Of a stretch of DNA of 64,000 bases, positions 1,997 to 21,143 are shown piece after piece. The translations under genes were made by a program, and so were the position numbers. The number at the start of each line of letters is the position of its first letter. Position 1 is the first letter of the stretch. This DNA is from a virus: the IMG/VR virus record IMGVR_UViG_3300045988_085064; one strand, given 5' to 3'. The notes beneath the pieces were generated by a model that was not told the DNA's origin, ran no database searches, and worked only from the letters and a program-made list of their open reading frames with translations.

Positions 1997-2012
1997 TAGG
2001 GAGGGTTTTACC

Positions 2013-2201
2013 ATGGAAAGAAATAGGAAAATCCGTTGCTATATTAACGGGGAATATCTTTTCACTACCGCAAAATTTTCCAGTCAAAAGGCGCTAAAAA
2101 ATCATCTGCGCAGCGTGAAACATATCGAAATCGCATCAATTCCAGTCAAATATATTACGATTTACGACTATGACAAATTGACTTTTGAATATGTTGAATG
2201 A
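2013..2201 (+). CDS. hypothetical protein
   Basis: 62-aa ORF with a GGGAGGG SD upstream. Confidence 0.45.
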   Translation: MERNRKIRCYINGEYLFTTAKFSSQKALKNHLRSVKHIEIASIPVKYITIYDYDKLTFEYVE

Positions 2202-2216
2202 TAGGAGGATTTTACA

Positions 2217-2399
2217 ATGCTATTTTATGGAAATTATGAAAACGGAAAGCGTTATATTTGCGCGTACGATGAAAAAAAGCACGGAGCGCCGCGCGTGATC
2301 TCGGAAGATATAACTTTTATCTATCATAATTCGATCAGTGTTTACCGGATTTACAAAACAGAGCGGGAAGCAATGTCTGGCAGCTGGGGGGAAGTATAG
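2217..2399 (+). CDS. hypothetical protein
   Basis: 60-aa ORF with a TAGGAGGA SD. Ends TAG TAA TAA. Confidence 0.45.
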   Translation: MLFYGNYENGKRYICAYDEKKHGAPRVISEDITFIYHNSISVYRIYKTEREAMSGSWGEV

Positions 2400-2587
2400 T
2401 AATAAGCCCGTTATCATGCCAGACGGAACAGAGACAACGCCAGCGCGTTATTTCGGCACGGAGGATGTTCACGACGTGTTTATATCGTGGTATGACGTAA
2501 AGGGCGAACTTTGGCCGGGTGAAACGGCATAGAACGCCCACCACGCCCCGAACACAAAAAAACATATAAACATATGCCGCCGTTCTG

Positions 2588-2630
2588 AAAGCCCGTTGGC
2601 AAGCCGCTGACGGGCTTTTCTTTGCTTTTC
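2588..2630 (+). terminator. rho-independent terminator closing the left gene block
   Basis: AAAGCCCGT (2588-2596) pairs with ACGGGCTTT (2610-2618), followed by a T-rich run. Confidence 0.7.
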
Positions 2631-2742
2631 TATGTTCCTATAGCACTAGCATAGTTTGCGCCGTATACGTCCACCAGAGCCGCCAGAATGGCATTGTACA
2701 ATATACCTAAAATAGACGGCTTATTTTTGTGCAATTTTTTTG

Positions 2743-2771
2743 TTGACATATGGCGCACGATCTGTTATAAT
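2743..2771 (+). promoter_or_regulatory. consensus sigma70-type promoter (P1)
   Basis: TTGACA 2743-2748, 17-nt spacer, TGtTATAAT ending at 2771. Confidence 0.7.
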
Positions 2772-2777
2772 CAAAAA

Positions 2778-3340
2778 TGACCTATGGGCAACATATGAGG
2801 GGGGAGGAGAAGATATGCTAGTTAGAGACGGCTAACTATGTTGTTTAGACAATCTGCACAATTCCCAACTTTCCGGCACACTTTACTCAACTAAAGTATT
2901 TAGCTAGTCCAAGCTAACTCCAGAAGTTGCTCTTCACTAACTTCATTTCGTTAAAGTGAAAATCCAGGGTCATGTGCGCCTATGCGTATGCATACGCCCA
3001 AGAGATTTTTATTTTTCCGGGCCGGAGTATATAATATTATATATAGCGCGGCGGCTGGTCCTTCGCGTTGCCTAGCGCCATGTCCTGGACTAGCGGATCA
3101 GGGCTATGCGCACAACGGTATTCTTCAGCTCGAGTATGTAAAAGCCGTAGCGACGTTTTGCCGAAAGATTTTGACAGAGGTATAAATATTCTTAGTGAAA
3201 TGTGAACTTAACTCAAATCGGCACCGACGGCGCGACATGATTATGATGAAATTTGCGCTCACAGTTTGCACGTCTTATGCCATATAGACAAGTTACCAAC
3301 CGACAGCCACACATTATTTTACGATGGAAAAATGTGTGAG
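2778..3340 (+). ncRNA. candidate large structured non-coding RNA (class unknown)
   Basis: About 560 nt downstream of P1 with no credible ORF. G+C is visibly higher than in the flanks. Many local helices, for example 2819-2825/2832-2838, 2900-2905/2912-2917 and 3054-3061/3087-3094. Confidence 0.35.
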
Positions 3341-3399
3341 TGTACACAAATCTCCTACGAAAAATGTGATGATGTTGACTTTGATGCTAATACGCTAAT

Positions 3400-3720
3400 C
3401 AATATGTATATGAAAGTATGATAATGCTTCTATTCATAGACATAAAACTGTATATTGCTTATAAATACATATATCTATATCATGTGTATTTCTATCTGCA
3501 TCATTTATGTGCATGATGATGTAGATGTATCTGCATATGAATATGTAAATGTATATGCAGGTGGATGTGTAAATGATAATGATTATTGTTATTGTATATG
3601 TATATAGGTATCTATATATACACGAGCTGGAAAATGAAAAATGACTTTCCTATATGTAAATACAGCCCGAAAATGAAATTCTAAAATTGGAATTGATATT
3701 TACAATTCCAAAATGAAAAT
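3400..3720. repeat. AT-rich low-complexity tract plus phased AAAATGAAA 9-mers (candidate origin or DNA-bending region)
   Basis: TATR-type low complexity over 3400-3620. TATCTGCAT appears twice and TGTAAATG twice. AAAATGAAA occurs at 3631, 3670 and 3710, about 40 nt apart. Confidence 0.4.
3687..3711. promoter_or_regulatory. operator-like perfect inverted repeat TTGGAATTG-N7-CAATTCCAA
   Basis: 9-bp arms at 3687-3695 and 3703-3711, just upstream of P2. A third TTGGAATTG lies at 3797-3805, downstream of the predicted start site. Confidence 0.45.
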
Positions 3721-3732
3721 TAAAATTCGTAC

Positions 3733-3761
3733 TTGACAAATAGAATCAAATGTGGTATACA
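3733..3761 (+). promoter_or_regulatory. sigma70-type promoter (P2)
   Basis: TTGACA 3733-3738, 17-nt spacer, TGgTATACA. Confidence 0.65.
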
Positions 3762-4024
3762 TATATACGAGGTGATAATTATGACGTGACTAATTATTGG
3801 AATTGTATTTTTTGTATTCTTTTTTTTATTTGCATTTTTTGGATTGGTAATGGTACATTGTATTTACGTCAAAAATGGAGGGAAATTATATTTTGATGAG
3901 TGGATTAAAAAAGTATGGCACAAAATTTGGTGATGATGATGTATGTACTCTATAATCACAAATACTATCTTATACACAATGCCATAGGACAATATTATGT
4001 TAGAGAAATGGAGGAGCTGTTTGA

Positions 4025-4156
4025 ATGATTGATGTATTGTGGAATGTCGTTTGTTGCATTGGATATGTCGCGTTTGCTTTGATTGGGATTTTATTGTGTG
4101 TTGCATTAGTTGGTTGTATTTTGAAATTGATTAAAATTTTTAAGGAGAATATCTAA
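4025..4156 (+). CDS. 43-aa membrane micro-protein
   Basis: GGAGGAG SD, then ATG 4025. Sequence MIDVLWNVVCCIGYVAFALIGILLCVALVGCILKLIKIFKENI. Too short for the ORF track. Confidence 0.35.
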   Translation: MIDVLWNVVCCIGYVAFALIGILLCVALVGCILKLIKIFKENI

Positions 4157-4220
4157 TGATTGAAACAAGAATTTATAAATGCGAATATTGCGGTGCAGGT
4201 TACGATTTCTGAGGTATATT

Positions 4221-4427
4221 ATGGATAATGTGTTAGTTAAATTTATAAAAATAATGTATGAACAGGCTAAAATGTCAAAAGATTCGTTAGATATCCATCT
4301 GTATATTGCAAATTGCGTAGGCGCTTGTGCATATGAGCATATGAGAACAGGAGAGAGACTTGCATTTAATTTATGGAAGAACGAATGGAGTGAAAAATTT
4401 AACAAATTGCTTGAAAATAATTCTTGA
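4221..4427 (+). CDS. hypothetical protein (68 aa)
   Basis: ATG 4221 follows TGAGGT. This is the in-frame inner start of track ORF 4179-4427. Confidence 0.4.
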   Translation: MDNVLVKFIKIMYEQAKMSKDSLDIHLYIANCVGACAYEHMRTGERLAFNLWKNEWSEKFNKLLENNS

Positions 4428-4452
4428 CAAACAATAAATCATATGGTATAAT
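4424..4452 (+). promoter_or_regulatory. consensus promoter (P3) driving tRNA and zinc-ribbon gene
   Basis: TTGACA 4424-4429, 17-nt spacer, TGgTATAAT. Confidence 0.7.
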
Positions 4453-4555
4453 ACAGATGTGGTTGAGAGATTGGGTAATCTCAATTACAATTCTTCATTG
4501 TGAACCTCCTGAAAATATAGTCCTGAGCATGACGCTAAAAGGCTCAATCAAATAT

Positions 4556-4648
4556 GGCGGTGTCGGTTAATGGTAAGCCAGCGGTCTTATAAACCGTTTA
4601 GCTCTAGATTGGGGCAAAATCAGAGTTCGACCCTCTGCGCCGCTACCA
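4556..4648 (+). tRNA. atypical class-II (long variable arm) tRNA, formal anticodon UAU, CCA encoded
   Basis: Manual cloverleaf. Acceptor GGCGGTG/CGCCGCT, D arm GGTT-AATGGTA-AGCC, anticodon arm GCGGT-CTTATAA-ACCGT, 23-nt variable region, T arm CAGAG-TTCGACC-CTCTG, discriminator A plus CCA. Confidence 0.6.
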
Positions 4649-4678
4649 GATAAAATCCAAATCCAATGAGGTGATAAT

Positions 4679-4915
4679 ATGGAAAAATCTCCACTAAAAG
4701 CCATCCGCGCAAAATGCTTGGATTGTACTTGTGGTCAAGCAAGCGAAGTTAAAAATTGCCAAATCAAGCAATGTCCACTTTGGGAATATAGATTTGGCAA
4801 ATCAGGGCGTACCCGCTCAATGACCGACGAGCAGAGGCAAGCTGCGGCAGAACGGCTCAAATCAGCTCGTCTGGCAAAGAAATCATTGACTAATAATGAA
4901 GAAAATTCAGATTAG
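4679..4915 (+). CDS. small zinc-ribbon protein (CxxC...CxxxxC)
   Basis: 78-aa ORF with a GAGGTGA SD. N-terminus KAIRAKCLDCTCGQASEVKNCQIKQCPLWEYRFG. Confidence 0.6.
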   Translation: MEKSPLKAIRAKCLDCTCGQASEVKNCQIKQCPLWEYRFGKSGRTRSMTDEQRQAAAERLKSARLAKKSLTNNEENSD

Positions 4916-5052
4916 TTGATTAAGTAAGGTAAGTTGTAGGGTAAGTAGTTAAGAGGAATTTATTGATTATTAGTGTATGATTATTTTATTTGCTTGTTTA
5001 GGCTCGTTTGCGGCTGGCGTTGCAGTTGGGATGCTGATTGCAAAAACAATGC

Positions 5053-5081
5053 TTGACAAATAAAATCAAGTATGGTATAAT
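5053..5081 (+). promoter_or_regulatory. consensus promoter (P4) of the 1-kb tRNA/structured-RNA transcript
   Basis: TTGACA 5053-5058, 17-nt spacer, TGgTATAAT. Confidence 0.7.
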
Positions 5082-5092
5082 TGAAAATGTAA

Positions 5093-5267
5093 ATAATATC
5101 CGACCGGATTTGAAGATAACCGTCAAAATCTATATCACGCCTGTACTGAGGTCTGCGCAGAGTTTGAGAAGCGGCAGATACAGACTAGAGAATTGGGGTC
5201 GCGCCTGAGCGTGTTCCGTTAGCATGAGGACAAAAACATAACGGCAAAGGTGATATAAGGATATTAT
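5093..5267 (+). ncRNA. closed structured RNA domain D1 (unknown class)
   Basis: ATAATATCC (5093-5101) pairs with GGATATTAT (5259-5267). Nested inside it, TATATCAC (5131-5138) pairs with GTGATATA (5250-5257). No ORF. Confidence 0.35.
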
Positions 5268-5335
5268 GTAAACATCATTCACGGGTCAGTGCTAGAAATA
5301 GCTATGAGGTAGGAAGCTGGCTTGAGATAAAATAT

Positions 5336-5420
5336 GCGGGATTGGTGGAATTGGCAGACACATCTGATTCAAGCTCAGATGCCGTAAGGCGTAGGGATTC
5401 GAGTTCCCTATCCCGCACCA
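5336..5420 (+). tRNA. tRNA-Leu (anticodon CAA)
   Basis: Canonical class-II cloverleaf. Acceptor GCGGGAT/ATCCCGC, D region GTGGAATTGGCAGACAC, anticodon arm TCTGA-TTCAAGC-TCAGA, long variable arm, T arm AGGGA-TTCGAGT-TCCCT, ACCA end. Confidence 0.9.
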
Positions 5421-5512
5421 TTAAGTCCACAGCTTGTTGGATGCATACGGCTTGCTAAACTGAATAGGAATCCAATGCTTCTAATGGGTTGATGCTTAAA
5501 GCCCATTTCCAT

Positions 5513-5607
5513 ATGATAGCAAGTAGCGCAAATTTTATATAAGATGCTCAATGAGAATTGGGGAATGTATATAAGATGAGGTCATGCGCGGCCTCGCTTG
5601 CTATCAT
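5513..5607 (+). ncRNA. closed structured RNA domain D2 in a tRNA-equivalent position
   Basis: An 11-bp terminal helix: ATGATAGCAAG (5513-5523) pairs with CTTGCTATCAT (5597-5607). It is preceded by the same leader hairpin and CCATAT motif as the tRNA-like element at 5726. Contains an internal direct repeat TATATAAGATG twice. Confidence 0.3.
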
Positions 5608-5725
5608 AACCAGTAGTTATGGTTTGTTGACCATTGTTTGGATTACTAGCCAATCGATGCCTAGAGTCGATAAAAACAAATCAATGGCGGTTCTGGTAGG
5701 TTGAGCCTAAAGCCTACTACCATAT

Positions 5726-5799
5726 GACCGTATCAGCTAATTGGTAAGCCCAAGCTGTTCAGAGCAGTTGGAATGCAGATTCAAATCCTGCTTCGGTCA
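5726..5799 (+). tRNA. tRNA-like element, formal anticodon CAG, imperfect
   Basis: Acceptor GACCGTA/TTCGGTC has one T-T mismatch. There is an extra nt between the D and anticodon stems. Anticodon arm AGCTG-TTCAGAG-CAGTT. T arm GCAGA-TTCAAAT-CCTGC has an A-C mismatch. No encoded CCA. Needs tRNAscan-SE. Confidence 0.35.
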
Positions 5800-5805
5800 T
5801 ACGAT

Positions 5806-5987
5806 TATAGGATTGCACACAGTTATGCCCACCATTGTAACTGACCCAGATGCAAACCTAAGAAAATCTTAAAACCCTTAGTAAATAACGCGCGTCACTG
5901 CTAAGGTTGGCTGTTGGTCGAATCTCATCTAGTACCATCCGAAGAGCAAAACTGGAAAATGTGCTCATAGTGCGGTGATAATCCTAT
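5806..5987 (+). ncRNA. closed structured RNA domain D3 (unknown class)
   Basis: ATAGGATT (5807-5814) plus GCAC (5815-5818) pairs with GTGC (5970-5973) plus AATCCTAT (5980-5987). Followed by hairpin ATAGGG (6001-6006) with CCCTAT (6052-6057). Confidence 0.3.
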
Positions 5988-6140
5988 TCCGTGCATTGGT
6001 ATAGGGCTTGGGTAAAGATGACCTTGTAAGTAGTTGATAGTGGAACAATAACCCTATATATCAAGTCAATATGCGCATGAACATTGCGACTTGTTTTAAT
6101 AAAATTTTATTAGAAATTGAAAGGAAATTAAAAGGAATTT

Positions 6141-6416
6141 ATGACAAAGAAGGAACTAATCAAGTTTGTAGCAGATAGTACAGAGAATACGGTCAAGGAC
6201 ACAACTGAGATCGTAGATACGTTCATTGACTATATCAGACATAGCCTAGTTCAGCATGAAGATGTGGTGATTCATGGCTTTGGCAAGTTTACAACTAAGC
6301 TGCGAGATGCAAGAACTGCTCGTAATCCACAGACTGGTAAAATCATTGAAGTCCCTGCCAAGTATGCTCTGACGTTTAAGCCGACAAGCACACTAAAGGC
6401 AGAAATCAATGAGTAA
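6141..6416 (+). CDS. hup: HU/IHF-family DNA-binding protein
   Basis: 91 aa. Sequence KKELIKFVA...VVIHGFGKFTTKLRDARTARNPQTGKIIEVPAKYALTFKP is the classic HU arm motif. Confidence 0.85.
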   Translation: MTKKELIKFVADSTENTVKDTTEIVDTFIDYIRHSLVQHEDVVIHGFGKFTTKLRDARTARNPQTGKIIEVPAKYALTFKPTSTLKAEINE

Positions 6417-6477: not shown

Positions 6478-6506
6478 TTGACAAATTGTCGCTATGGTGC
6501 TATACT
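6478..6506 (+). promoter_or_regulatory. sigma70-type promoter (P5)
   Basis: TTGACA 6478-6483, 17-nt spacer, TGcTATACT. Confidence 0.7.
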
Positions 6507-6535
6507 TAAATCATCAAATGAAGGAGCTGAACATT

Positions 6536-7375
6536 ATGAATGAACTGTTTATTATGAGCCTCAAGGCAAAGCATCGTAGCGAAGGCACTGTTCGTGAATA
6601 TACCAAGGCGATTGAGAATTGCATGGCTTATGTCAATAAGCCTGAAGCTGAAATCAAGCCGATTGACCTTGAATTGTGGCAGTCCAGCATGAGCAATCTC
6701 AGCTCTGCATCTGTTGCTCAGAGAACATCTGCGGTCAGAGAATACTTCAAATTCCTTTATCGGAATGAATTCATTAGCCGCAATCCGGCTGAGATGCTTG
6801 AAGCACCGCAGATTAAAAATCGTGAGCAGTCAGCTCTTAATGGTGAACAGGTCAGGGCAATGGTCAATGCGGCAACTAATGAGCGCAATAAAGCAATTAT
6901 TATGATGCTTGCTCAGACTGGTTTGCGTATTCATGAGCTTGCTAATATCACGCTTGAACAGTATGAATCCCGTAGTAATAATGTGCTGGTCATCCGTGGC
7001 AAGGGCGATAAGGATAGGCTGGTTGGTCTGGCAGATGAAACAATCGAGCTGATTGATAACTATATTTCCAATGAGCGCAAAGATGGATGCGAATATCTGT
7101 TCGTAGGCAATCGTGGAAATAAAATGGATGGCAAGAACACCAGCGCCATGCTCAAGGTATGTGCTAGAAAAGCTGGTATTGAAAATTGGGAAGAATTGCA
7201 TATTAGTAATCATACCATGCGCCGCACATTTGCTACTATGATGTCTGAGGCTGATGTACCTATTGAGATCATTAGTAAAGCAATGGGGCATAGTTCAGTT
7301 GCCATTACAGCGAATAGATATATTAAGCGTACAGAGCAGAGAGCAATTAACGCAATGAGCGTTGTTAATTTCTAA
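6536..7375 (+). CDS. tyrosine recombinase/integrase (XerC/D-like)
   Basis: The C-terminal sequence HTMRRTFATMM...MGHSSVAITANRYI carries the R..H..R..Y catalytic pattern. ATG 6536 follows GAAGGAG. Track start 6494 lies upstream of the predicted transcription start. Confidence 0.85.
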   Translation: MNELFIMSLKAKHRSEGTVREYTKAIENCMAYVNKPEAEIKPIDLELWQSSMSNLSSASVAQRTSAVREYFKFLYRNEFISRNPAEMLEAPQIKNREQSALNGEQVRAMVNAATNERNKAIIMMLAQTGLRIHELANITLEQYESRSNNVLVIRGKGDKDRLVGLADETIELIDNYISNERKDGCEYLFVGNRGNKMDGKNTSAMLKVCARKAGIENWEELHISNHTMRRTFATMMSEADVPIEIISKAMGHSSVAITANRYIKRTEQRAINAMSVVNF

Positions 7376-7403: not shown

Positions 7404-7898
7404 ATGTTTGAGTACAAATTCTTTACTGGTAACACTGCTCCGAAATATGTGGAGGGAGATTATTTGCTTACTGTAAAGGGAAATGTGATGGAAATGAAAA
7501 AGGTAGGTGAAGCAAATACCGTTAAGGTGTCTTCTATTTGTAAAGAGGGAGACACTTGGAGCCTTCAGGGTGGAATTGAAGACTGTCTTTCTAAGGTTCC
7601 AGAAAGCACCAGAATCAATGTTGGCGATACAGTCAAATTCAAGAATGACATGAATAATTTTTTCTCTTGGCGCGAAACGGCAGAGATGAGAGAATTTATC
7701 GAGAAAGAAAATATGCTCATGAAGTATGTTCTTAGTGCTGTTGAAACTGAACGAGCAATTGAAAATCTTGAAACATTTAAATATGTGCGCGATATGAGTT
7801 TTGTAGTGCTTTATATTGATTCCCGGTTTGCTTATATTTACGAAGGCCAGACTGGCTATGGGCTGTTTGTTGAAACAAAGGATATTAAGCGCGTATGA
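7404..7898 (+). CDS. hypothetical protein
   Basis: ATG 7404 follows AAGGAGG. 164 aa. Confidence 0.55.
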   Translation: MFEYKFFTGNTAPKYVEGDYLLTVKGNVMEMKKVGEANTVKVSSICKEGDTWSLQGGIEDCLSKVPESTRINVGDTVKFKNDMNNFFSWRETAEMREFIEKENMLMKYVLSAVETERAIENLETFKYVRDMSFVVLYIDSRFAYIYEGQTGYGLFVETKDIKRV

Positions 7899-11489: not shown

Positions 11490-11810
11490 ATGGAATATAA
11501 TATTGGAGACATCATAAAGTTCAAAAATGAAGCCGGTGTATTTCAGGTTGAGATTAAGAGTGAGATTCCAACAATAGATGCTATTCAAGGATTTGCTGAC
11601 GATATGATTTTTGAAGGCAAAATGCGGTTTGAAGTACACCACAGAGACTATGGAGAATATATTATTACCATGACAAGCCGTGAAGAATCCAATGATACGG
11701 GTAAAATTATCGTATGTTTGCTTGATACTTGTAATGATGAGGTTGAATATTATCTTGGACAGATTATTCAGTATGAAGATGAAGAAGATGTATTTGAGTT
11801 GATGAAGTGA
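11490..11810 (+). CDS. hypothetical protein
   Basis: 106-aa ORF with a TAAGGAGGA SD. Confidence 0.5.
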   Translation: MEYNIGDIIKFKNEAGVFQVEIKSEIPTIDAIQGFADDMIFEGKMRFEVHHRDYGEYIITMTSREESNDTGKIIVCLLDTCNDEVEYYLGQIIQYEDEEDVFELMK

Positions 11811-14800
11811 TGAATACAAACTATACAATCCTTCACCTTCATTCTATGCTATCTAATGGCGTAACCAACATAGATTCTGTGACGCGCTACGACCAATATA
11901 TAGACCGCGCCGCAGAGTTAGGGATGAAGGCAATAGCATTTTCTGAACACGGGTCAATTTTTCAATGGGTAAAGAAAAAATTGCATACTGAAGAAATGGG
12001 TATGAAATATATCCATGCTCAAGAATTTTATCTAACTCAGACCTTGGATGAAAAAATCCGTGATAATTACCACTGTCTGTTAATTGCTAAAAATTATGAT
12101 GGCATATTAGAGCTGAACAAGTTATCAAGTAAGGCATTTAACCGTGACGATAATTCATTTTATTATGTACCGCGAATCACGATTGATGACGTAAAGAATA
12201 CCAGTGATAATATCATTGTATCTACAGCTTGTCTTGGCGGCGTATTGAACAAAGCACCAGATGATGTTCGATGGGATTTCTACCATTGGCTATGTGAGCA
12301 TAGAGACAGATGTTTTCTTGAGATTCAGCCCCATCTTGACCCCGCTCAAAAGAGCTATAACAACACGCTATGGGCACTATCTAAACAAAGCGGCTTGCGG
12401 CTATTGATGTGTACTGATACTCATGCGCTCAATTCTACTCATGTAGATGGGCGACGCATCCTACAAAAAGCCAAGAATATTCATTTTGACGGTGAAGATA
12501 AATTTCATCTTGAAATGATGAGCTATGATGAGTTAGTGCAACTATGCTGCATGCAAGACGCGCTACCTATAGATGTGTACTTGGATGCTATTGAGATGAC
12601 AAACACGGTAGCAGATATGATTGAACCGTTTGAGCTTGATTATAGCTATAAATATCCTCATCTATGGGGTGATGATAGTGAGGCTGTGCTTAGAGATAAG
12701 ATCGCAGACGGTATTATGTGGCGCGGTGTTGATAAGCTGCCTAATTATCAAGAATACCTAGATCGCATCGAATACGAGATGAAAGCATATATCCATAATA
12801 GCGCGATTGACTTTATGTTGCTCATGGAGGACATCATAGCATGGTGCAAGACACAGGGTATTCTTGTGGGATATGGGCGCGGCTCATGTAATGGCTCAGT
12901 CATTGCTTATCTGCTTGGAATTACTGAGATGGATAGCATCAAGCACGGGCTTAATTTTGAGCGATTCATGAATACGGAGCGTGTATCACTGTCTGATATT
13001 GATACAGATTTTCCTCCTAGTAGAATCAATGAGGTCAAGCAATATATATTTAACAAACACGGATTACACTGTTCTGACATTGTAACATTTAATACGATTG
13101 CTCTGAAGGGCGCTATTCGTGATGTTGGTAGAGCGTTGGAAATGCCACTTGATGAAGTAGGGCAAATCTGTAATACCGTAGAACAAGATGAGCACAAATG
13201 CCGCACTAAATATCCAGAGCTATTCAAATATGTCGATATTGTAAATGGTTGCGTTGTATCAGTTGGCAATCATCCTTGCGGCTTAGTTGTATCACCTCAT
13301 TCTATTGATGACCGTATGGGGCTATTCACCACATCAACAGACGATGTTCCAATCAGTCAAATTAATATGAAAGAGGTTGATTTGCAGAATTATGTCAAGC
13401 TAGATTTACTCAAACTAGACACCATTGAACTAATCAACGAGACGTGTAAATTAGCTGGTATTGAGCGCCTAACACCTGACAATGTTGATATAAATGATAA
13501 AGTCGTGTGGGATAGCATTAGAGATGATACTACGGCTATATTCCAGTGGGAAGGCATGACTGGCGATAGATATATCAAGCAACTCTTGTCTGAATCTAAT
13601 ATTCAGAAATTCAAGGCATTGAACCCAAATATTGACTATATGACATTGCTATCAATCGGTAATGGCGCAATTCGTCCTGCCGGTGCATCATATCGTGATG
13701 ACCTTGCTAATGGTGTTATCCGCAAATCTGGAAATGCGGCGATTGATGAATTTATGAAGCCGACATTTGGCTATCTTGTATTCCAGTGTCAAATTATTCA
13801 ATTCTTACATGAATATTGTGGCTATACTATGGGCGAAGCCGATGTTGTGCGCCGCCATTTTGCTAAAAAGACTGGTACAGACAAGGATATACCACAAATC
13901 AAGGCTGGTTTTGCTGAGACAATGGCAGAGCGATATAATATGAGCCAAGATGAATCAGATAAGGTTATAGCTGATTTTATCCAAGTCATTATCGACGCTA
14001 GTAATTATCTGTTCTCTCTAAATCATAGTCAGCCATATAGCTATGAGGGATATGTATCAGGTTGGCTTAGATACCACTATCCACTTCAATTCCTTACGGT
14101 TGCTATGAATATCAATCAAGGTAAAGAGGAAAAGACGGCGGCACTAACGGCATATGCTCATAAAGTCGGCATTAAAATTAAATCTCCTAAATTTCGTCAT
14201 TCTCGCTCAGATTATTTTTACGATATAAACGAAAATACAATCTATAAGGGGCTTGGCTCAATCAAGTATATGAGCACCGATGTAGCCGAGGCATTATATG
14301 GTATGCGCGATATGCAGTTTAAGAATTTTATTGATGTGCTATTTGCTATTCAACAGCTCAACTCTAAACCAGATGCGCGGCAACTTGATATTCTAGTTAA
14401 AATTGGTTATTTTGCAGAATTTGGACCAGCCAAGGCACTATTGCTAGGTATTGAGATTTTTAATAAATTTTCAAAATGCAAGACAATTAAACTTGACAAA
14501 TGGGTTGGAATGGGTTATAATGTAGATATGCTCAAGCCGTATGCTGGTAATCTAACAGAGAAAACAGCTAGTCAACTTGATAATCGCGGCATCATATTAT
14601 CGATTCTGCGCTCAATGAAAATGCCAAAGACAACTATTGCTGATAAACTGAAATGGCAGATTGAGTTATTAGGCTATGTGGATGGCAACGACCCCAATTC
14701 AGACCTTAATGATTGGCTAGTGCTAGATGTTAAGACAACAGGATATGGTACGATTTATTGTATGCTTTATAACCTATGCTATGGCGCAGAACGCACATAT

Positions 14801-14968
14801 CGAGCTAATAAGAAATTCTGGACAAATCATCAATTATCAAAGGGTGATGCAATTAGAGTTGTATTGCAAGAGAAAAATAAAATGAAAAAGGATGAAAATG
14901 GTGAATGGGTAACATTATCGGAAACGTATCAGGAGATGAAAGTGTGGAAGAAGCATGAAGAAATGTAA
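11807..14968 (+). CDS. dnaE: DNA polymerase III alpha subunit (DnaE-type, N-terminal PHP domain)
   Basis: 1053 aa. PHP motif ILHLHSMLSNG...AFSEHGS, and GYGRGSCNGSVIAYLLGIT typical of Pol IIIalpha. Confidence 0.9.
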   Translation: MMNTNYTILHLHSMLSNGVTNIDSVTRYDQYIDRAAELGMKAIAFSEHGSIFQWVKKKLHTEEMGMKYIHAQEFYLTQTLDEKIRDNYHCLLIAKNYDGILELNKLSSKAFNRDDNSFYYVPRITIDDVKNTSDNIIVSTACLGGVLNKAPDDVRWDFYHWLCEHRDRCFLEIQPHLDPAQKSYNNTLWALSKQSGLRLLMCTDTHALNSTHVDGRRILQKAKNIHFDGEDKFHLEMMSYDELVQLCCMQDALPIDVYLDAIEMTNTVADMIEPFELDYSYKYPHLWGDDSEAVLRDKIADGIMWRGVDKLPNYQEYLDRIEYEMKAYIHNSAIDFMLLMEDIIAWCKTQGILVGYGRGSCNGSVIAYLLGITEMDSIKHGLNFERFMNTERVSLSDIDTDFPPSRINEVKQYIFNKHGLHCSDIVTFNTIALKGAIRDVGRALEMPLDEVGQICNTVEQDEHKCRTKYPELFKYVDIVNGCVVSVGNHPCGLVVSPHSIDDRMGLFTTSTDDVPISQINMKEVDLQNYVKLDLLKLDTIELINETCKLAGIERLTPDNVDINDKVVWDSIRDDTTAIFQWEGMTGDRYIKQLLSESNIQKFKALNPNIDYMTLLSIGNGAIRPAGASYRDDLANGVIRKSGNAAIDEFMKPTFGYLVFQCQIIQFLHEYCGYTMGEADVVRRHFAKKTGTDKDIPQIKAGFAETMAERYNMSQDESDKVIADFIQVIIDASNYLFSLNHSQPYSYEGYVSGWLRYHYPLQFLTVAMNINQGKEEKTAALTAYAHKVGIKIKSPKFRHSRSDYFYDINENTIYKGLGSIKYMSTDVAEALYGMRDMQFKNFIDVLFAIQQLNSKPDARQLDILVKIGYFAEFGPAKALLLGIEIFNKFSKCKTIKLDKWVGMGYNVDMLKPYAGNLTEKTASQLDNRGIILSILRSMKMPKTTIADKLKWQIELLGYVDGNDPNSDLNDWLVLDVKTTGYGTIYCMLYNLCYGAERTYRANKKFWTNHQLSKGDAIRVVLQEKNKMKKDENGEWVTLSETYQEMKVWKKHEEM
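14493..14521 (+). promoter_or_regulatory. perfect consensus promoter inside the dnaE coding sequence (P7)
   Basis: TTGACA 14493-14498, 17-nt spacer, TATAAT 14516-14521. No TG extension. Confidence 0.4.
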
Positions 14969-18480: not shown

Positions 18481-18618
18481 ATGACTTGGAAAGTATGGTT
18501 TGATGGTGATGAATGCCAGAACGTGATTATTGTTCAGTGTGATTCTTTTGATGAGGCAATTAAATATGTACGAACGATTGATGAACGGTATGACACAGCA
18601 CAGGTGGTAAGCAAATGA
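18481..18618 (+). CDS. hypothetical small protein (45 aa)
   Basis: ATG 18481 follows AGGAGG (18465-18470). Track start 18418 is the promoter -35 itself. Confidence 0.5.
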   Translation: MTWKVWFDGDECQNVIIVQCDSFDEAIKYVRTIDERYDTAQVVSK

Positions 18619-19097
18619 GAAAGCCACCTACAATTAAATGCCGCCAATGCGGTAAATCAACGTTAAAACAAAATGCAATTGAATATAAGCCTAAATTCTA
18701 TTTTTGTTGTGAACAATGCAAGCAAGATTATATCAATACTCATACTGCTAAGTCAAAGCCAGAATCAAAAGATGATAGGCGCAAATTGTTAGATTATATA
18801 CGTCAAATCTCCCCTGATGCCAATATGCGGCTTGTAGGTATACAGCTTGCTCAGTTAATGAAAGATAATCCTGATATGACATGTGGCGGCATTGCTTATA
18901 CCATTAGATATATCCATAAGGAGCAAGGATTGGATATATCTAAATCACCACTTGGACTGGTCAAATATAAATATGATGAATGTAAAAAATATTATACTTG
19001 GCTAAATCAGGTAAAGCAGAATATACAGCAATGGAAAGCTGAAGATGGGGTTGAGACGATTATGAAAAGAAATGATGAGGAGGATGTGTTTGGATGA
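18615..19097 (+). CDS. zinc-ribbon protein
   Basis: N-terminal CRQCG...CCEQC motif. 160 aa. Confidence 0.55.
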   Translation: MRKPPTIKCRQCGKSTLKQNAIEYKPKFYFCCEQCKQDYINTHTAKSKPESKDDRRKLLDYIRQISPDANMRLVGIQLAQLMKDNPDMTCGGIAYTIRYIHKEQGLDISKSPLGLVKYKYDECKKYYTWLNQVKQNIQQWKAEDGVETIMKRNDEEDVFG

Positions 19098-19312
19098 TTT
19101 TAATTGAATACTATCCGGGATATGATATTGGCTATGACGCTACTAAGATGTATGTTGATATTTCAAGTATTCAATATATTACTTATACTTATGTCAGAGG
19201 GCATAAGTATCTAGTTATTGGACTCAATGGGGAATCTTTTACTCTAACAGATGAGAGTGGCAAGGATTTGTTGGGTATCATGGGATTGTCTAAGGAGGAT
19301 TTGATGTCATGA
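19094..19312 (+). CDS. hypothetical protein
   Basis: 72-aa coupled ORF. Confidence 0.5.
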   Translation: MILIEYYPGYDIGYDATKMYVDISSIQYITYTYVRGHKYLVIGLNGESFTLTDESGKDLLGIMGLSKEDLMS

Positions 19313-19560
19313 AACAATATGTCAATGAATATGATGAAGCTCTCAATGCTCTAACTAGCGGTATGCTTGATACAAGTGATATTGAGCCATATATGGGTGC
19401 TATTGTTGGAGCATTGCAGAAACAAATCCCCATATATGCGGTTGGTGTGCGCTCATCTGGATTGTACAAAGATAGTGGCATTTGCCAGTTATGTGGTAAT
19501 GATGTCAACTCATATATGCAATATTGTGAATGTTGTGGGCAAGCGTTGAAATGGAAATGA
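19309..19560 (+). CDS. hypothetical protein with C-terminal zinc ribbon
   Basis: 83 aa, with CQLCGN...CECCG. Confidence 0.5.
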   Translation: MKQYVNEYDEALNALTSGMLDTSDIEPYMGAIVGALQKQIPIYAVGVRSSGLYKDSGICQLCGNDVNSYMQYCECCGQALKWK

Positions 19561-19670
19561 TAATGTGTCCATATAAAGATGGTGCTAAATGTACCGCTCC
19601 TGATACAGATTGCCTGCATTGGCAAGGCACATTTTGTGAATTAGATGAATCGAGCAAGGAGGAATAATCA

Positions 19671-21143
19671 TTGCTCTATGACCAAAATTCTGTTAGGTTG
19701 CTATTGGGTTGTTTGCTAATTAAGTCGTCTCTTGCTATTTCCGACAAGTATCCTTTAAGCCGTGATGATTTCACGGTCGATTTCCATCTCAGATTGTGGC
19801 AAGGGTGCGTTGCTCTAGCTAAACGTGGGGCTGAATCTATATCTGCCCTAGACCTCTATATGCTATGTAAGAATAATAAGCAGGTAGAGGATATATTCAA
19901 GTTAAATCAGCTAGACGATTTTATTGATACTGTTAAGCAACTTGCTAATGTGGGCAATTTTGAGGTATATTACAACAATGTGCGCCGCGCAACATTACTC
20001 CGTTCATATAAAAATGCTGGCTATAACGTAGACAAATTTGAGCAAGACGATAAAGCAACCATAGAAGATATAGTACAATATTTTGACGCACAACAGATAG
20101 CTATAAAGAAGCAATTCTATAAAGACAAAGATATAGATGAGCTAAAAGCCGGTGATGGATTTGAGGCGGTTAAAGAGGGTTTCAAAGCAGAACCGCTATT
20201 CGGCGCAACAACTTTTAGTGAATATCTAAACACAGCTGCTAGAGGTTGGATTCCGGGACAGCTATCTATCTATTCAGTCGGCTCAGGTGTAGGCAAGTCA
20301 ACTATTGGCTTGGCTAATCTTGTGCAAGTATGTTGCCCTAGAATCTATGATATAGACAAGGGGCAATATGTAGATAATCCATGTTATCAGCATAAGGCTG
20401 GTCTATATCTTCAATTTGAGATGGCTGGTGATACTGAAATCACGCCCAAGATTGTGGCTACAATTAGCGGCGTACCATGTTTTAGCATCTTAAATGGGCG
20501 ATATGAAGAAGGTGAAGAAGAACGTGTAGATGAGGCTATTAAAATCCTGCATGAATCTAAGCTATATATTGTCACCATGCCTAATTATACTGTTGATTTG
20601 ATTGAATCATATGTAAAGGATTATGTGGTAAATAAGCAAGTAGGCTTTCTATGTTATGATTATATCGTTGAATCATCATCCGTATCGAGTGACCTAGCTA
20701 AAAAGAACGGCGTATCTACTCGTTCAGATCAGGTGCTATCTGGTATAGCAAGTAAGCTCAAGGATTTAGCTGTTGAATATAATATAGCAGTACTTACATT
20801 TACTCAGGTCAATGCTAATGCTATGACGCAAGAAATTATGGATAGTGGTGTTGCGGCTGGTTCAAGAGCGATTCAGAACAAGGCTGATGTGGCCGGTGTA
20901 ATTATGCCTTTGCGCCGTAAAGAGCAAGAGATAGCTGATATGATGATGGAGAAATATCCTGATAAAACAAAGCCAAATCGCGTGCTGCATCTCTATAAAA
21001 TGCGCTTTTCACAGGTTGAACAGGGTATTAAGATATATTTTAATCTTGACTTGAATACTGGACGAACAAAGGATTGTTTTGTAACGAGCAAGTTCGACAA
21101 TCCAATACAGCTTCAAAGAACAAGGTTGGTGTATGCGAAATGA
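19671..21143 (+). CDS. dnaB: replicative DNA helicase (DnaB family)
   Basis: 490 aa. Walker A SVGSGVGKSTIGLAN. RecA-like C-terminal domain. TTG start after AAGGAGGA. Confidence 0.85.
   Translation: MLYDQNSVRLLLGCLLIKSSLAISDKYPLSRDDFTVDFHLRLWQGCVALAKRGAESISALDLYMLCKNNKQVEDIFKLNQLDDFIDTVKQLANVGNFEVYYNNVRRATLLRSYKNAGYNVDKFEQDDKATIEDIVQYFDAQQIAIKKQFYKDKDIDELKAGDGFEAVKEGFKAEPLFGATTFSEYLNTAARGWIPGQLSIYSVGSGVGKSTIGLANLVQVCCPRIYDIDKGQYVDNPCYQHKAGLYLQFEMAGDTEITPKIVATISGVPCFSILNGRYEEGEEERVDEAIKILHESKLYIVTMPNYTVDLIESYVKDYVVNKQVGFLCYDYIVESSSVSSDLAKKNGVSTRSDQVLSGIASKLKDLAVEYNIAVLTFTQVNANAMTQEIMDSGVAAGSRAIQNKADVAGVIMPLRRKEQEIADMMMEKYPDKTKPNRVLHLYKMRFSQVEQGIKIYFNLDLNTGRTKDCFVTSKFDNPIQLQRTRLVYAK

Follow-up and report, generated by a model that had tools for sequence, protein, structure and literature searches.

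Layout of the Early Region

The stretch of DNA analyzed here, referred to as the window, is the 64,000-nt IMG/VR virus record IMGVR_UViG_3300045988_085064, and the element in question is a segment at positions 2778–3340, which an earlier reading of the bare sequence had singled out as GC-rich, hairpin-dense and free of open reading frames (ORFs), and had proposed as a candidate stand-alone large non-coding RNA or, alternatively, as a foreign non-coding insertion. Positions 2000–4200 were read directly and each element listed in this original prediction was checked. As had been stated, the segment lies directly behind a promoter, P1, a perfect consensus site at 2743–2771 on the plus strand (TTGACA, a 17-nt spacer and TATAAT with an extended −10 TG; 12/12 consensus matches), from which transcription is predicted to start near 2778. 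The non-coding block that contains it is bounded on the left by the intrinsic terminator of an upstream operon of small ORFs (2587–2619, plus strand), consisting of a 14-bp stem followed by a T-run and conserved in relatives, and on the right by a second early promoter, P2, at 3734–3762 on the plus strand (TTGACA, a 17-nt spacer and TG-n-TATACA, or TATATA in relatives; family D1), which is conserved in most relatives. After P2, positions 3763–3786 hold a Shine–Dalgarno (SD) sequence, GAGGTGA, and a 2-codon ORF, ATG ACG TGA, an arrangement like that found after P1; in the relatives a real gene begins here instead.

All three of the longest gaps without an ORF in the window fall within 2566–6140, which also contains transfer RNAs (tRNAs), several promoters of the consensus TTGACAAAT...TGnTATAAT and tiny ORFs served by strong GGAGG sites; thus, the segment sits in a promoter-rich, gene-poor early region. 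The tyrosine recombinase encoded at 6494–7375, used as query, retrieved 26 close relatives from IMG/VR with 89–96% amino-acid identity, and a look-up of exact proteins identified two near-identical contigs, L029 and L030. Alignments with blastn and MAFFT showed that all relatives with contigs reaching across this locus have the non-coding block from the terminator to P2 in the same place; among the relatives, this block behaves as a mosaic full of insertions and deletions (indels). Its leftmost part, the conserved non-coding block A (2620–2735), is found in almost all of the relatives that form group 1 and is 71–86% identical to the window in most relatives, with lower values in L002 (59%) and L024 (40%).

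Coding Potential and Composition

The segment is non-coding on both strands, as had been claimed. Six-frame ORF clustering across 19 loci merely mirrors DNA identity in all frames, and in the relatives 1-nt indels and stop codons break every reading frame of both strands; a hidden protein gene was therefore rejected, and no intact coding gene was found at the homologous positions. None of the ORFs in or adjoining the segment matched a Pfam or PHROG family. The sole ORF listed in it (2982–3185), which had been judged implausible, is 67 amino acids long and has no SD sequence before it. Also rejected was a minus-strand ORF overlapping block A (2630–2758, ending in ILYNAILAALVDVYGANYASAIGT and a stop), which is not conserved: in L003, L020, L012, L021 and L023 the frame is shifted or cut short, and the amino-acid divergence of the ORF is that expected from neutral DNA change. 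Stop-codon recoding was discarded as well, since all three stop codons interrupt every frame. The statement that no ORF carries an SD sequence proved incorrect: a strong one, GGAGGAG (2805–2811), is followed by an ATG at 2815, though this opens an ORF of only six codons (MLVRDG*, 2815–2835, plus strand). The mini-ORF is not conserved, most relatives having a 2-codon version (MS*) and L004 having lost the ATG; the SD sequence, the ATG 7–8 nt downstream and the 2-codon ORF of most relatives could constitute a start-stop mini-cistron.

The compositional claims hold in a weaker form. GC content is 0.440, as compared with 0.391 for the window, a mild elevation corresponding to the 92nd percentile of same-length windows; the impression of a high GC is mostly due to the contrast with the next kilobase, where GC falls to its lowest value in the entire 64 kb, whichever scale was tried (0.247 over 300 nt). 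A mild excess is also seen in group 1 (0.38–0.46 for the block against 0.37–0.41 for the locus), and not in the second group of relatives, group 2. Hairpin density is only marginally raised, with nine perfect stems 6 bp or longer, where dinucleotide shuffles have 4.2 ± 2.2; at least nine such stems are reached by ~5% of the shuffles, and also in 18% of equal-size windows of this genome. The listed helices and palindromes are all present, although three coordinate ranges were offset: TTCACT/AGTGAA is at 2933–2938/2955–2960, one base off, and CACACATT/AATGTGTG is at 3308–3315/3331–3338, its start three bases off, the range 3311–3340 that had been given for it actually reading ACATTATT...GTGTGAG. 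The ATGACC described as the 5′ end is found at 2777–2782, while the segment start at 2778 itself reads TGACC.

The P1 Cassette

P1 and a leader of ~65 nt form a cassette, which is present in the window and in L003, L004, L008, L012, L020, L021, L023 and L026, that is, in 8 of the 23 relatives with sequence across the junction. It is absent from the other 15: nine simply miss it (L001, L002, L005, L013, L016, L017, L018, L022 and L024), while L006, L009, L010, L014, L015 and L019 have a GC-rich scrap of a valS gene in its place. The relatives devoid of P1 keep a single copy of the TTTGTGCAAT repeat, so that the cassette represents an indel between short direct repeats; the alignments place the left copy at 2727–2736 on the plus strand, and the right copy is the left arm of a TTGTGCA-ATC-TGCACAA palindrome. 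A covariance model of the leader matches only the eight relatives, the window, L029 and L030, once per genome and at this site only, and a mobile, multi-copy cassette was rejected on this basis.

The valS scrap, located in L006 at 7600–7740 (corresponding to about 2740–2845 of the window) on the minus strand, encodes the N-terminus of valyl-tRNA synthetase; it looks like a captured scrap of host DNA and a hint at the host clade.

Three small elements are found in the leader. The first is a 5′-proximal stem-loop, TATG/CATA, at 2783–2795 on the plus strand, which covaries with TAGG/CCTA in 4 versus 5 sequences. It is followed by an SD-like polypurine tract, GAGGGGGGAGGAGAAGA (2797–2813, plus strand), which resembles a STAB-SD element and is kept as GAGGAGGGGRAGG in all P1-containing relatives; the tract would lie at about +20 to +36 from the predicted start, and no conserved ORF is found behind it. 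The third element, hairpin H1 (2819–2838, plus strand), consists of GTTAG, a 6-nt spacer and CTAAC, and is present in 9/9 P1-containing sequences. RNAalifold, applied to these nine leaders, returned the two small hairpins, 95.8% paired and with one covarying pair each; in H1 this is a G-C to A-U exchange (GTTAGA/TCTAAC versus GTTAAA/TTTAAC). The pairing that had been suggested between the 5′ end (2777–2782) and 2968–2973 is not conserved: in P1-containing relatives GACCT pairs with a local AGGTC ~30 nt downstream, and the distal GGTC partner is missing altogether in five of them.

The G-run at 2799–2804, within the polypurine tract, is the sole difference between the window (G6) and L030 (G9) from 2500 to 6300; it could be the result of homopolymer slippage or an artifact of sequencing or assembly.

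A further observation concerns the left edge of the block. The contigs L003, L005 and L017, which are independent and derive from one metagenome, start within 20 nt of each other, at positions equivalent to 2601–2619, just after the terminator. One of these three breaking contigs, IMGVR_UViG_3300045988_084534 (101,275 bp), has a 75-nt terminal overlap and assembles as a circle; since it closes on itself, a physical genome end at ~2600 was rejected as the less likely explanation, and the repeated break probably arose during assembly, at a junction that varies between strains.

Evolutionary Rate and the Replaced Core

Third-codon positions of the integrase, with a mean pairwise identity of 0.70 (about 70–76%), served as a near-neutral yardstick; the four-fold sites of the same gene are 0.54–0.76 identical to the window. 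Among the relatives, the blocks equivalent to 2620–3340 are 0.71–0.75 identical and thus barely constrained, whereas the stretch equivalent to 3340–3760, at 0.84, is clearly constrained. The core of the segment occurs in at least three alleles: one in group 1, one in group 2 and another in the window itself. The last of these is 0.38–0.61 identical to group 1 and 0.61 to group 2 over 2846–2959, and 0.38–0.50 and 0.50, respectively, over 2960–3200, while the flanks are at least 0.8 identical to most group-1 relatives. As its identity of only 38–61% falls below the neutral yardstick, the core at 2846–3200 is a replaced allele. Exact-word scans of IMG/VR, JGI metagenomes and GTDB genomes for the source of this allele gave 0 matches. 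The suggestion of a foreign non-coding insertion is thereby partly borne out, as an allele replacement in the core. A second variable module, at 2846–2900, is lacking in five relatives.

Positions 2844–2872 hold a degenerate palindrome, TTAGACA-ATC-TGCACAA, together with the conserved island CAATCTGCACAATTYCCAACTTT, which is 84% identical over 50 nt even to group 2, with which its flanks do not align; the palindrome is perfect (7+7) in L004, L018 and L026, and the element looks like a protein-binding operator. It is followed on the plus strand by a hairpin, ACTTTA/TAAAGT (2880–2897), which is shared with group 2 (ACTTTAC/GTAAAGT) and absent from group 1, and by hairpin H2, TTAGCT/AGCTAA (2900–2917). 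A hairpin is found at the position of H2 in every allele, with different sequences: GTTAGA/TCTAAC in group 1, GTTAGCA/TGCTAAC in group 2 and AATTG/CAATT in the L003 type; within group 1, the only changes are C to T opposite G, giving G-U pairs that are tolerated on the plus strand only. Hairpin H3 (TTCACT...AGTGAA, 2933–2960, plus strand) has at the equivalent position of the relatives a helix of different register, CUUUA/UGAAG (helix 2).

Downstream of H3 is repeat unit 1 (2975–3055), comprising a GC palindrome, GCGTATGCATACGC (2984–2997), a T-run followed by CC, a 16-nt AT palindrome (3028–3043) and the clamp AGCGCGGCGG. In groups 1 and 2 the unit, with the consensus ATTTTYCC..AATATA..TATATAAT..GCGGCG, occurs as two tandem copies ~100 nt apart; a profile search with nhmmer detected just one copy in the window, where the sequence aligning to unit 2 of the relatives (3095–3170) is decayed and has lost the AT palindrome. 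Between the two, hairpin H4, GCTGGTCC/GGACTAGC (3054–3094, plus strand), takes the position of helix 4 of the relatives (GAUUU/AGGUC), the version of the window being GC-rich and changed on both sides.

The 3′ limit that had been set for the segment, 3340, falls inside a distinct element made of arrayed AAAAATGTGTG boxes (3308–3371), which continues downstream. It is composed of an inverted pair (3308–3320/3328–3340) and a direct copy (3359–3371), with one further direct copy in the relatives; the inverted pair, which had been listed as the last hairpin and is helix 7 of the consensus structure, is nearly invariant and shows no compensatory change. Inside the inverted boxes there is a promoter-like site on the minus strand, from 3340 to 3313, reading TTCACA-16-AATAAT in the relatives and CTCACA-16-AATAAT in the window; this conserved site would drive transcription antisense to the P1 leader. 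The AAAAATGTGTG element belongs with the AT-rich repeat region (3340–3733) and P2, and not with an RNA gene driven by P1. The AT-rich non-coding stretch itself (3400–3733) bears ATGTAT microsatellites and GAAAATGAAA repeats, and is 84% identical among the relatives, as compared with ~70% at neutral positions.

RNA Structure

A scan with the Rfam covariance models detected only two matches at the gathering threshold in the window, both tRNAs outside the segment, and nothing relevant in 2400–4000 even at E ≤ 10. The minimum free energy (MFE) z-score of 2778–3340 is −1.30 on the plus strand and −0.80 on the minus strand (the window's own value being −1.3 to −1.9); over 17 homologues it averages −1.06 on the plus strand (range +0.9 to −4.2) and −0.05 on the minus strand. 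The consensus structure of the body, obtained from 18 homologues over ~500 nt, comprises 51 pairs in seven local helices on the plus strand (−20.7 kcal/mol) and 35 pairs on the reverse strand (−7.0 kcal/mol), with no conserved global fold covering most of the molecule on either strand. Two-sided changes affect 18 pairs of the local helices, against 8.8 ± 1.9 in column shuffles, and slid controls are exceeded too; however, the alignment used for these counts had also yielded the structure, which biases them upward, and its sequences are related to one another, so that the counts lend modest support to isolated hairpins only. Thus, the covariation sought among homologues is present in a few small helices, as compensatory or wobble-compatible changes, and does not extend to a global architecture: a few plus-strand hairpins appear to be under some constraint. 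No plus-strand terminator was predicted between 2620 and 5000, and therefore 3340 is not a transcript end.

A Proposed Optional Promoter and Leader Module

Taken as a whole, the original prediction is partly confirmed as an observation, while its interpretation as a stand-alone non-coding RNA is not supported. The favored reading, to which we assign a probability of about 0.5, is that the segment represents the promoter-proximal 560 nt of a ~1-kb untranslated stretch between P1 and P2, lying in a hypervariable early region, and that it is an optional module made of a strong promoter and a stabilized leader, not a discrete RNA gene. Given the very strong promoter directly upstream, the segment is probably transcribed in this phage. 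P1, a consensus sigma-A-type promoter delivered with its leader by the repeat-bounded cassette in about a third of the related genomes, would be used by the host RNA polymerase, with initiation near 2778. The first ~60 nt of the transcript would then carry the 5′ stem-loop, the GGAGG tract without a conserved ORF and the GTTAG-N6-CTAAC hairpin; in a Firmicute host, these elements may act as a 5′ mRNA stabilizer, a bound 30S subunit and the 5′ hairpin blocking 5′-exonucleolytic decay. Since no terminator follows the P1 leader, the transcript would run through the segment and on past the AT-rich repeats and P2, reaching the small early ORFs and the tRNA genes, whose expression it may boost. The remaining ~450 nt would represent a near-neutral spacer, with its allele swapped in the window, a few hairpins kept in position and the two tandem units of AT palindrome and GC clamp.

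Similar stabilizers have been described in Firmicutes. A STAB-SD is an SD-like sequence close to a 5′ end; it is bound by the 30S subunit, with no initiation of translation, and blocks RNase J1 (PMC4113751). A polypurine 5′ stabilizer (Hue et al. 1995) is among the references cited in PMC3997798. The leader described here resembles the STAB-SD of cry3A and the polypurine element in having a GGAGG-type tract ~20–35 nt from the predicted 5′ end, conserved without being tied to a conserved ORF and preceded by a small stem-loop; it differs in that most relatives keep an ATG 7–8 nt downstream, opening a 2-codon ORF, and the stabilizing function, suggested by sequence likeness, is putative. The polypurine stabilizer is reportedly derived from an early RNA of phage SP82. 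More generally, large lytic phages have early host-takeover regions, such as the terminal-repeat module of SPO1, the pre-early region of T5 and the left end of T7. These resemble the present region in their clustered consensus host-type promoters driving tiny ORFs, their variable gene content and their non-coding, repeat-rich stretches; unlike them, however, it gives no sign of being a genome end or a terminal repeat, and it has no homology to those phages.

Several points weigh against the proposal of a promoter and leader module. P1 transcription, its start site and the stabilization of the RNA are all deduced from motifs in the DNA. About 1 kb of non-coding DNA, of similar length, is kept in all covering relatives despite the turnover and the frequent loss of P1, which is hard to explain if it were a mere P1 leader, and 950 nt would be unusually long for a leader. 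Moreover, the plus strand folds more stably than the minus strand in 15 of the 17 homologues, with z-scores below −3 (−3 to −4.2) only in L017 and two group-2 loci, and the hairpins H2, H3 and H4 persist in position across alleles of little sequence identity. The stability of the plus strand and the position-kept hairpins make a constraint acting on the RNA or on single strands, beyond the first 60 nt, likely.

If the promoter and leader module is the correct description, this is an ordinary phage feature, an optional strong-promoter and stabilized-leader cassette ahead of variable early genes. Its practical value is to keep annotators from calling an RNA gene at this locus; it would also be a clear case of phage early non-coding DNA that turns over, as cassettes come and go and alleles are replaced, and yet stays in place, the same site in some relatives even holding the scrap of a host valS gene.

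Alternative Explanations

The main rival, possible though on balance rather unlikely, is that the segment belongs to a replication origin that depends on transcription, of the type found in the lactococcal phage c2, with looser parallels in the primary origin of T7 and oriF of T4. The untranslated P1 transcript would cross the hairpin region into an AT-rich unwinding region (3400–3730), where it would activate or prime DNA synthesis, and the AAAAATGTGTG and GAAAATGAAA repeats would be candidate binding sites for initiation factors. The origin of Ceduoviruses consists of the non-coding DNA that separates the first early promoter from the second (PMC7150918); it contains no ORF of at least 100 bp and no ribosome-binding site after the promoter PE1 (PMC7150918; c2 annotation). 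The non-coding transcript PE1-T, in whose production PE1 is reportedly involved, has been implicated in initiation, and three mutually non-homologous origin types occur in otherwise similar Ceduoviruses (PMC7150918).

The same layout is found here, with P1, ~950 nt of non-coding DNA without a conserved ORF, and P2. As in the c2, bIL67 and 923 types, two early promoters flank a hairpin-rich and, in the present case, presumably transcribed stretch of a Gram-positive phage, with no ORF or ribosome-binding site used for a real gene and several unrelated sequence types: at least three alleles are found among the relatives, and 2846–3200 is only 0.38–0.61 identical as compared with the neutral ~0.70. 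In addition, the global GC minimum, with its repeats, lies directly downstream and is conserved above the neutral rate, the longest ORF-free gaps of the window cluster in this region, and the EP1–EP2 interval of c2 is, as in the window, slightly richer in GC (0.386 versus 0.329 for the c2 intergenic region). On the other hand, most relatives do without P1, and in the 15 that lack it no other consensus promoter was found to replace it. The two gene blocks diverge ~3.5 kb to the left of P1, according to the gene map of L029, and the region is thus internal to the plus-strand block, unlike the Ceduovirus origin, which lies at the early/late divergence point. The non-coding interval is also longer (~950 nt against ~360 nt between EP1 and EP2 in c2), no cluster of DnaA boxes was found, and blastn against the 611-bp intergenic region of c2 gave a best E-value of 0.1, indicating no similarity to that origin. 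Finally, the segment itself is near-neutral, the constrained part (3340–3760) being outside it, and an origin function is putative. Should an origin-like function be real, the region would be the place where replication begins in a widespread, uncultured family of gut phages of 77–101 kb, and transcribed origins of the c2 type, with their interchangeable alleles, would be known outside lactococcal phages too.

It is unlikely that the region acts instead as DNA, as an early control region in which palindromes and boxes are operators gating P1, P2 and a leftward promoter, and the apparent hairpins are protein-binding sites. Candidate operators are the TTGTGCA-ATC-TGCACAA palindrome, the GTTAR-N6-YTAAC sites and the inverted AAAAATGTGTG pair. 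Indeed, the most conserved islands (2850–2872 and 3308–3345) are invariant palindromic or repeated DNA words, the spacer of GTTAR-N6-YTAAC is fixed at 6 bp, a half-site is immediately upstream of the −35 element of P1 and the conserved minus-strand promoter-like site is inside the inverted boxes. However, no regulator gene was identified beside the region, and the motifs do not recur elsewhere in the window; a genome-wide role as promoter or motif was rejected for the AT-palindrome unit, the AAAAATGTGWGA box and GTTAR-N6-YTAAC, as none of them recurs beyond the locus. The compensatory change from G-C to A-T in both arms of H1 and the wobble changes of H2, confined to the plus strand, are also better explained by base pairing.

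A further, doubtful possibility is that the whole block from P1 to P2 is a fast-evolving, modular early non-coding RNA of the plus strand, with interchangeable alleles in a family of gut Oscillospiraceae phages without a cultured member; its function would depend on position-kept hairpins and not on sequence. Such an RNA could serve an adjacent origin as a primer or activator of the c2 kind, or provide a multi-hairpin platform for decoy or processing functions.

The stand-alone, large structured RNA of ~560 nt transcribed from P1, as first hypothesized, is very improbable. It would be in keeping with the strong promoter, the lack of an ORF, the several hairpins, the excess of two-sided changes in the local helices and the systematically greater stability of the plus strand. 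Moreover, the large non-coding RNAs GOLLD and ROOL are known from phages, near tRNA genes, and, like these and the pRNA of phi29, the segment is a long non-coding stretch that follows a strong promoter and neighbors tRNA genes in a phage of Firmicute type; it differs from them in matching no covariance model and in lacking a conserved multi-helix architecture. Against it, the MFE z-score is −1.3 to −1.9, the 51 pairs of the consensus are few for ~500 nt and counted with an upward bias, substitution is near-neutral with frequent indels, the RNA would have no terminator and no defined 3′ end, and its promoter is missing in most relatives. Retron, diversity-generating retroelement and clustered regularly interspaced short palindromic repeat (CRISPR)-like explanations were rejected, as there is no reverse transcriptase nearby and no repeat-spacer pattern.

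Genome Context, Likely Host and Other Observations

The plus-strand replication block of the window encodes a DnaB-like helicase, a DnaE-type PolIII alpha subunit, a RecD-like helicase, a RecJ-like protein and a ribonucleotide reductase, and a block of minus-strand genes occupies 32–64 kb. Blastn and megablast searches of 50,697 GenBank phage records returned no nucleotide matches. The closest DnaE polymerases are those of a Clostridioides phage-plasmid (50% identity) and of Bacillus phages (42%), sigma-A-type promoters and a GGAGG style of SD sequences can be read directly from the DNA, and the valS scrap of the group-2 relatives is 88–91% identical, at the nucleotide level, to valS of metagenome-assembled genomes of Oscillospiraceae. 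Together, the promoter and SD style, the DnaE relatives and the valS scrap point to a Firmicute host, and this uncultivated phage probably infects Oscillospiraceae (Clostridia).

The only RNA genes that reach the Rfam gathering score in the window are the tRNA-Ile at 4556–4648 and the tRNA-Leu at 5336–5420. A third, degenerate tRNA-like sequence (5726–5799; 29.5 bits against a gathering score of 29), with CAG in the anticodon loop, was missed by ARAGORN and by the whole-window Rfam run; it lies within a 1.2-kb ORF-free gap adjoining the genes for HU (6141–6416) and for the tyrosine recombinase, and may represent either a tRNA in decay or a site of the attP type.

L030 follows the window with 99.8% identity as far as ~10.76 kb and then diverges completely. 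From 10,760 onward, compared with L030 at 18500–20183, the window encodes the DnaE-type PolIII alpha subunit (11807–14968), in place of which L030 encodes a PolB-type polymerase; by comparison of the two sequences, this amounts to a predicted swap of the replicative polymerase between near-identical phage genomes. To the left of the window, L029 (1–1252) and L030 (1–1376) encode a protein of at least 854 amino acids, which weakly matches the RNA-dependent RNA polymerase family PF05183 and is reminiscent of YonO and of the crAss-type single-chain RNA polymerases; in view of this weak match, the phage may have non-host promoters that would be invisible to a consensus scan.

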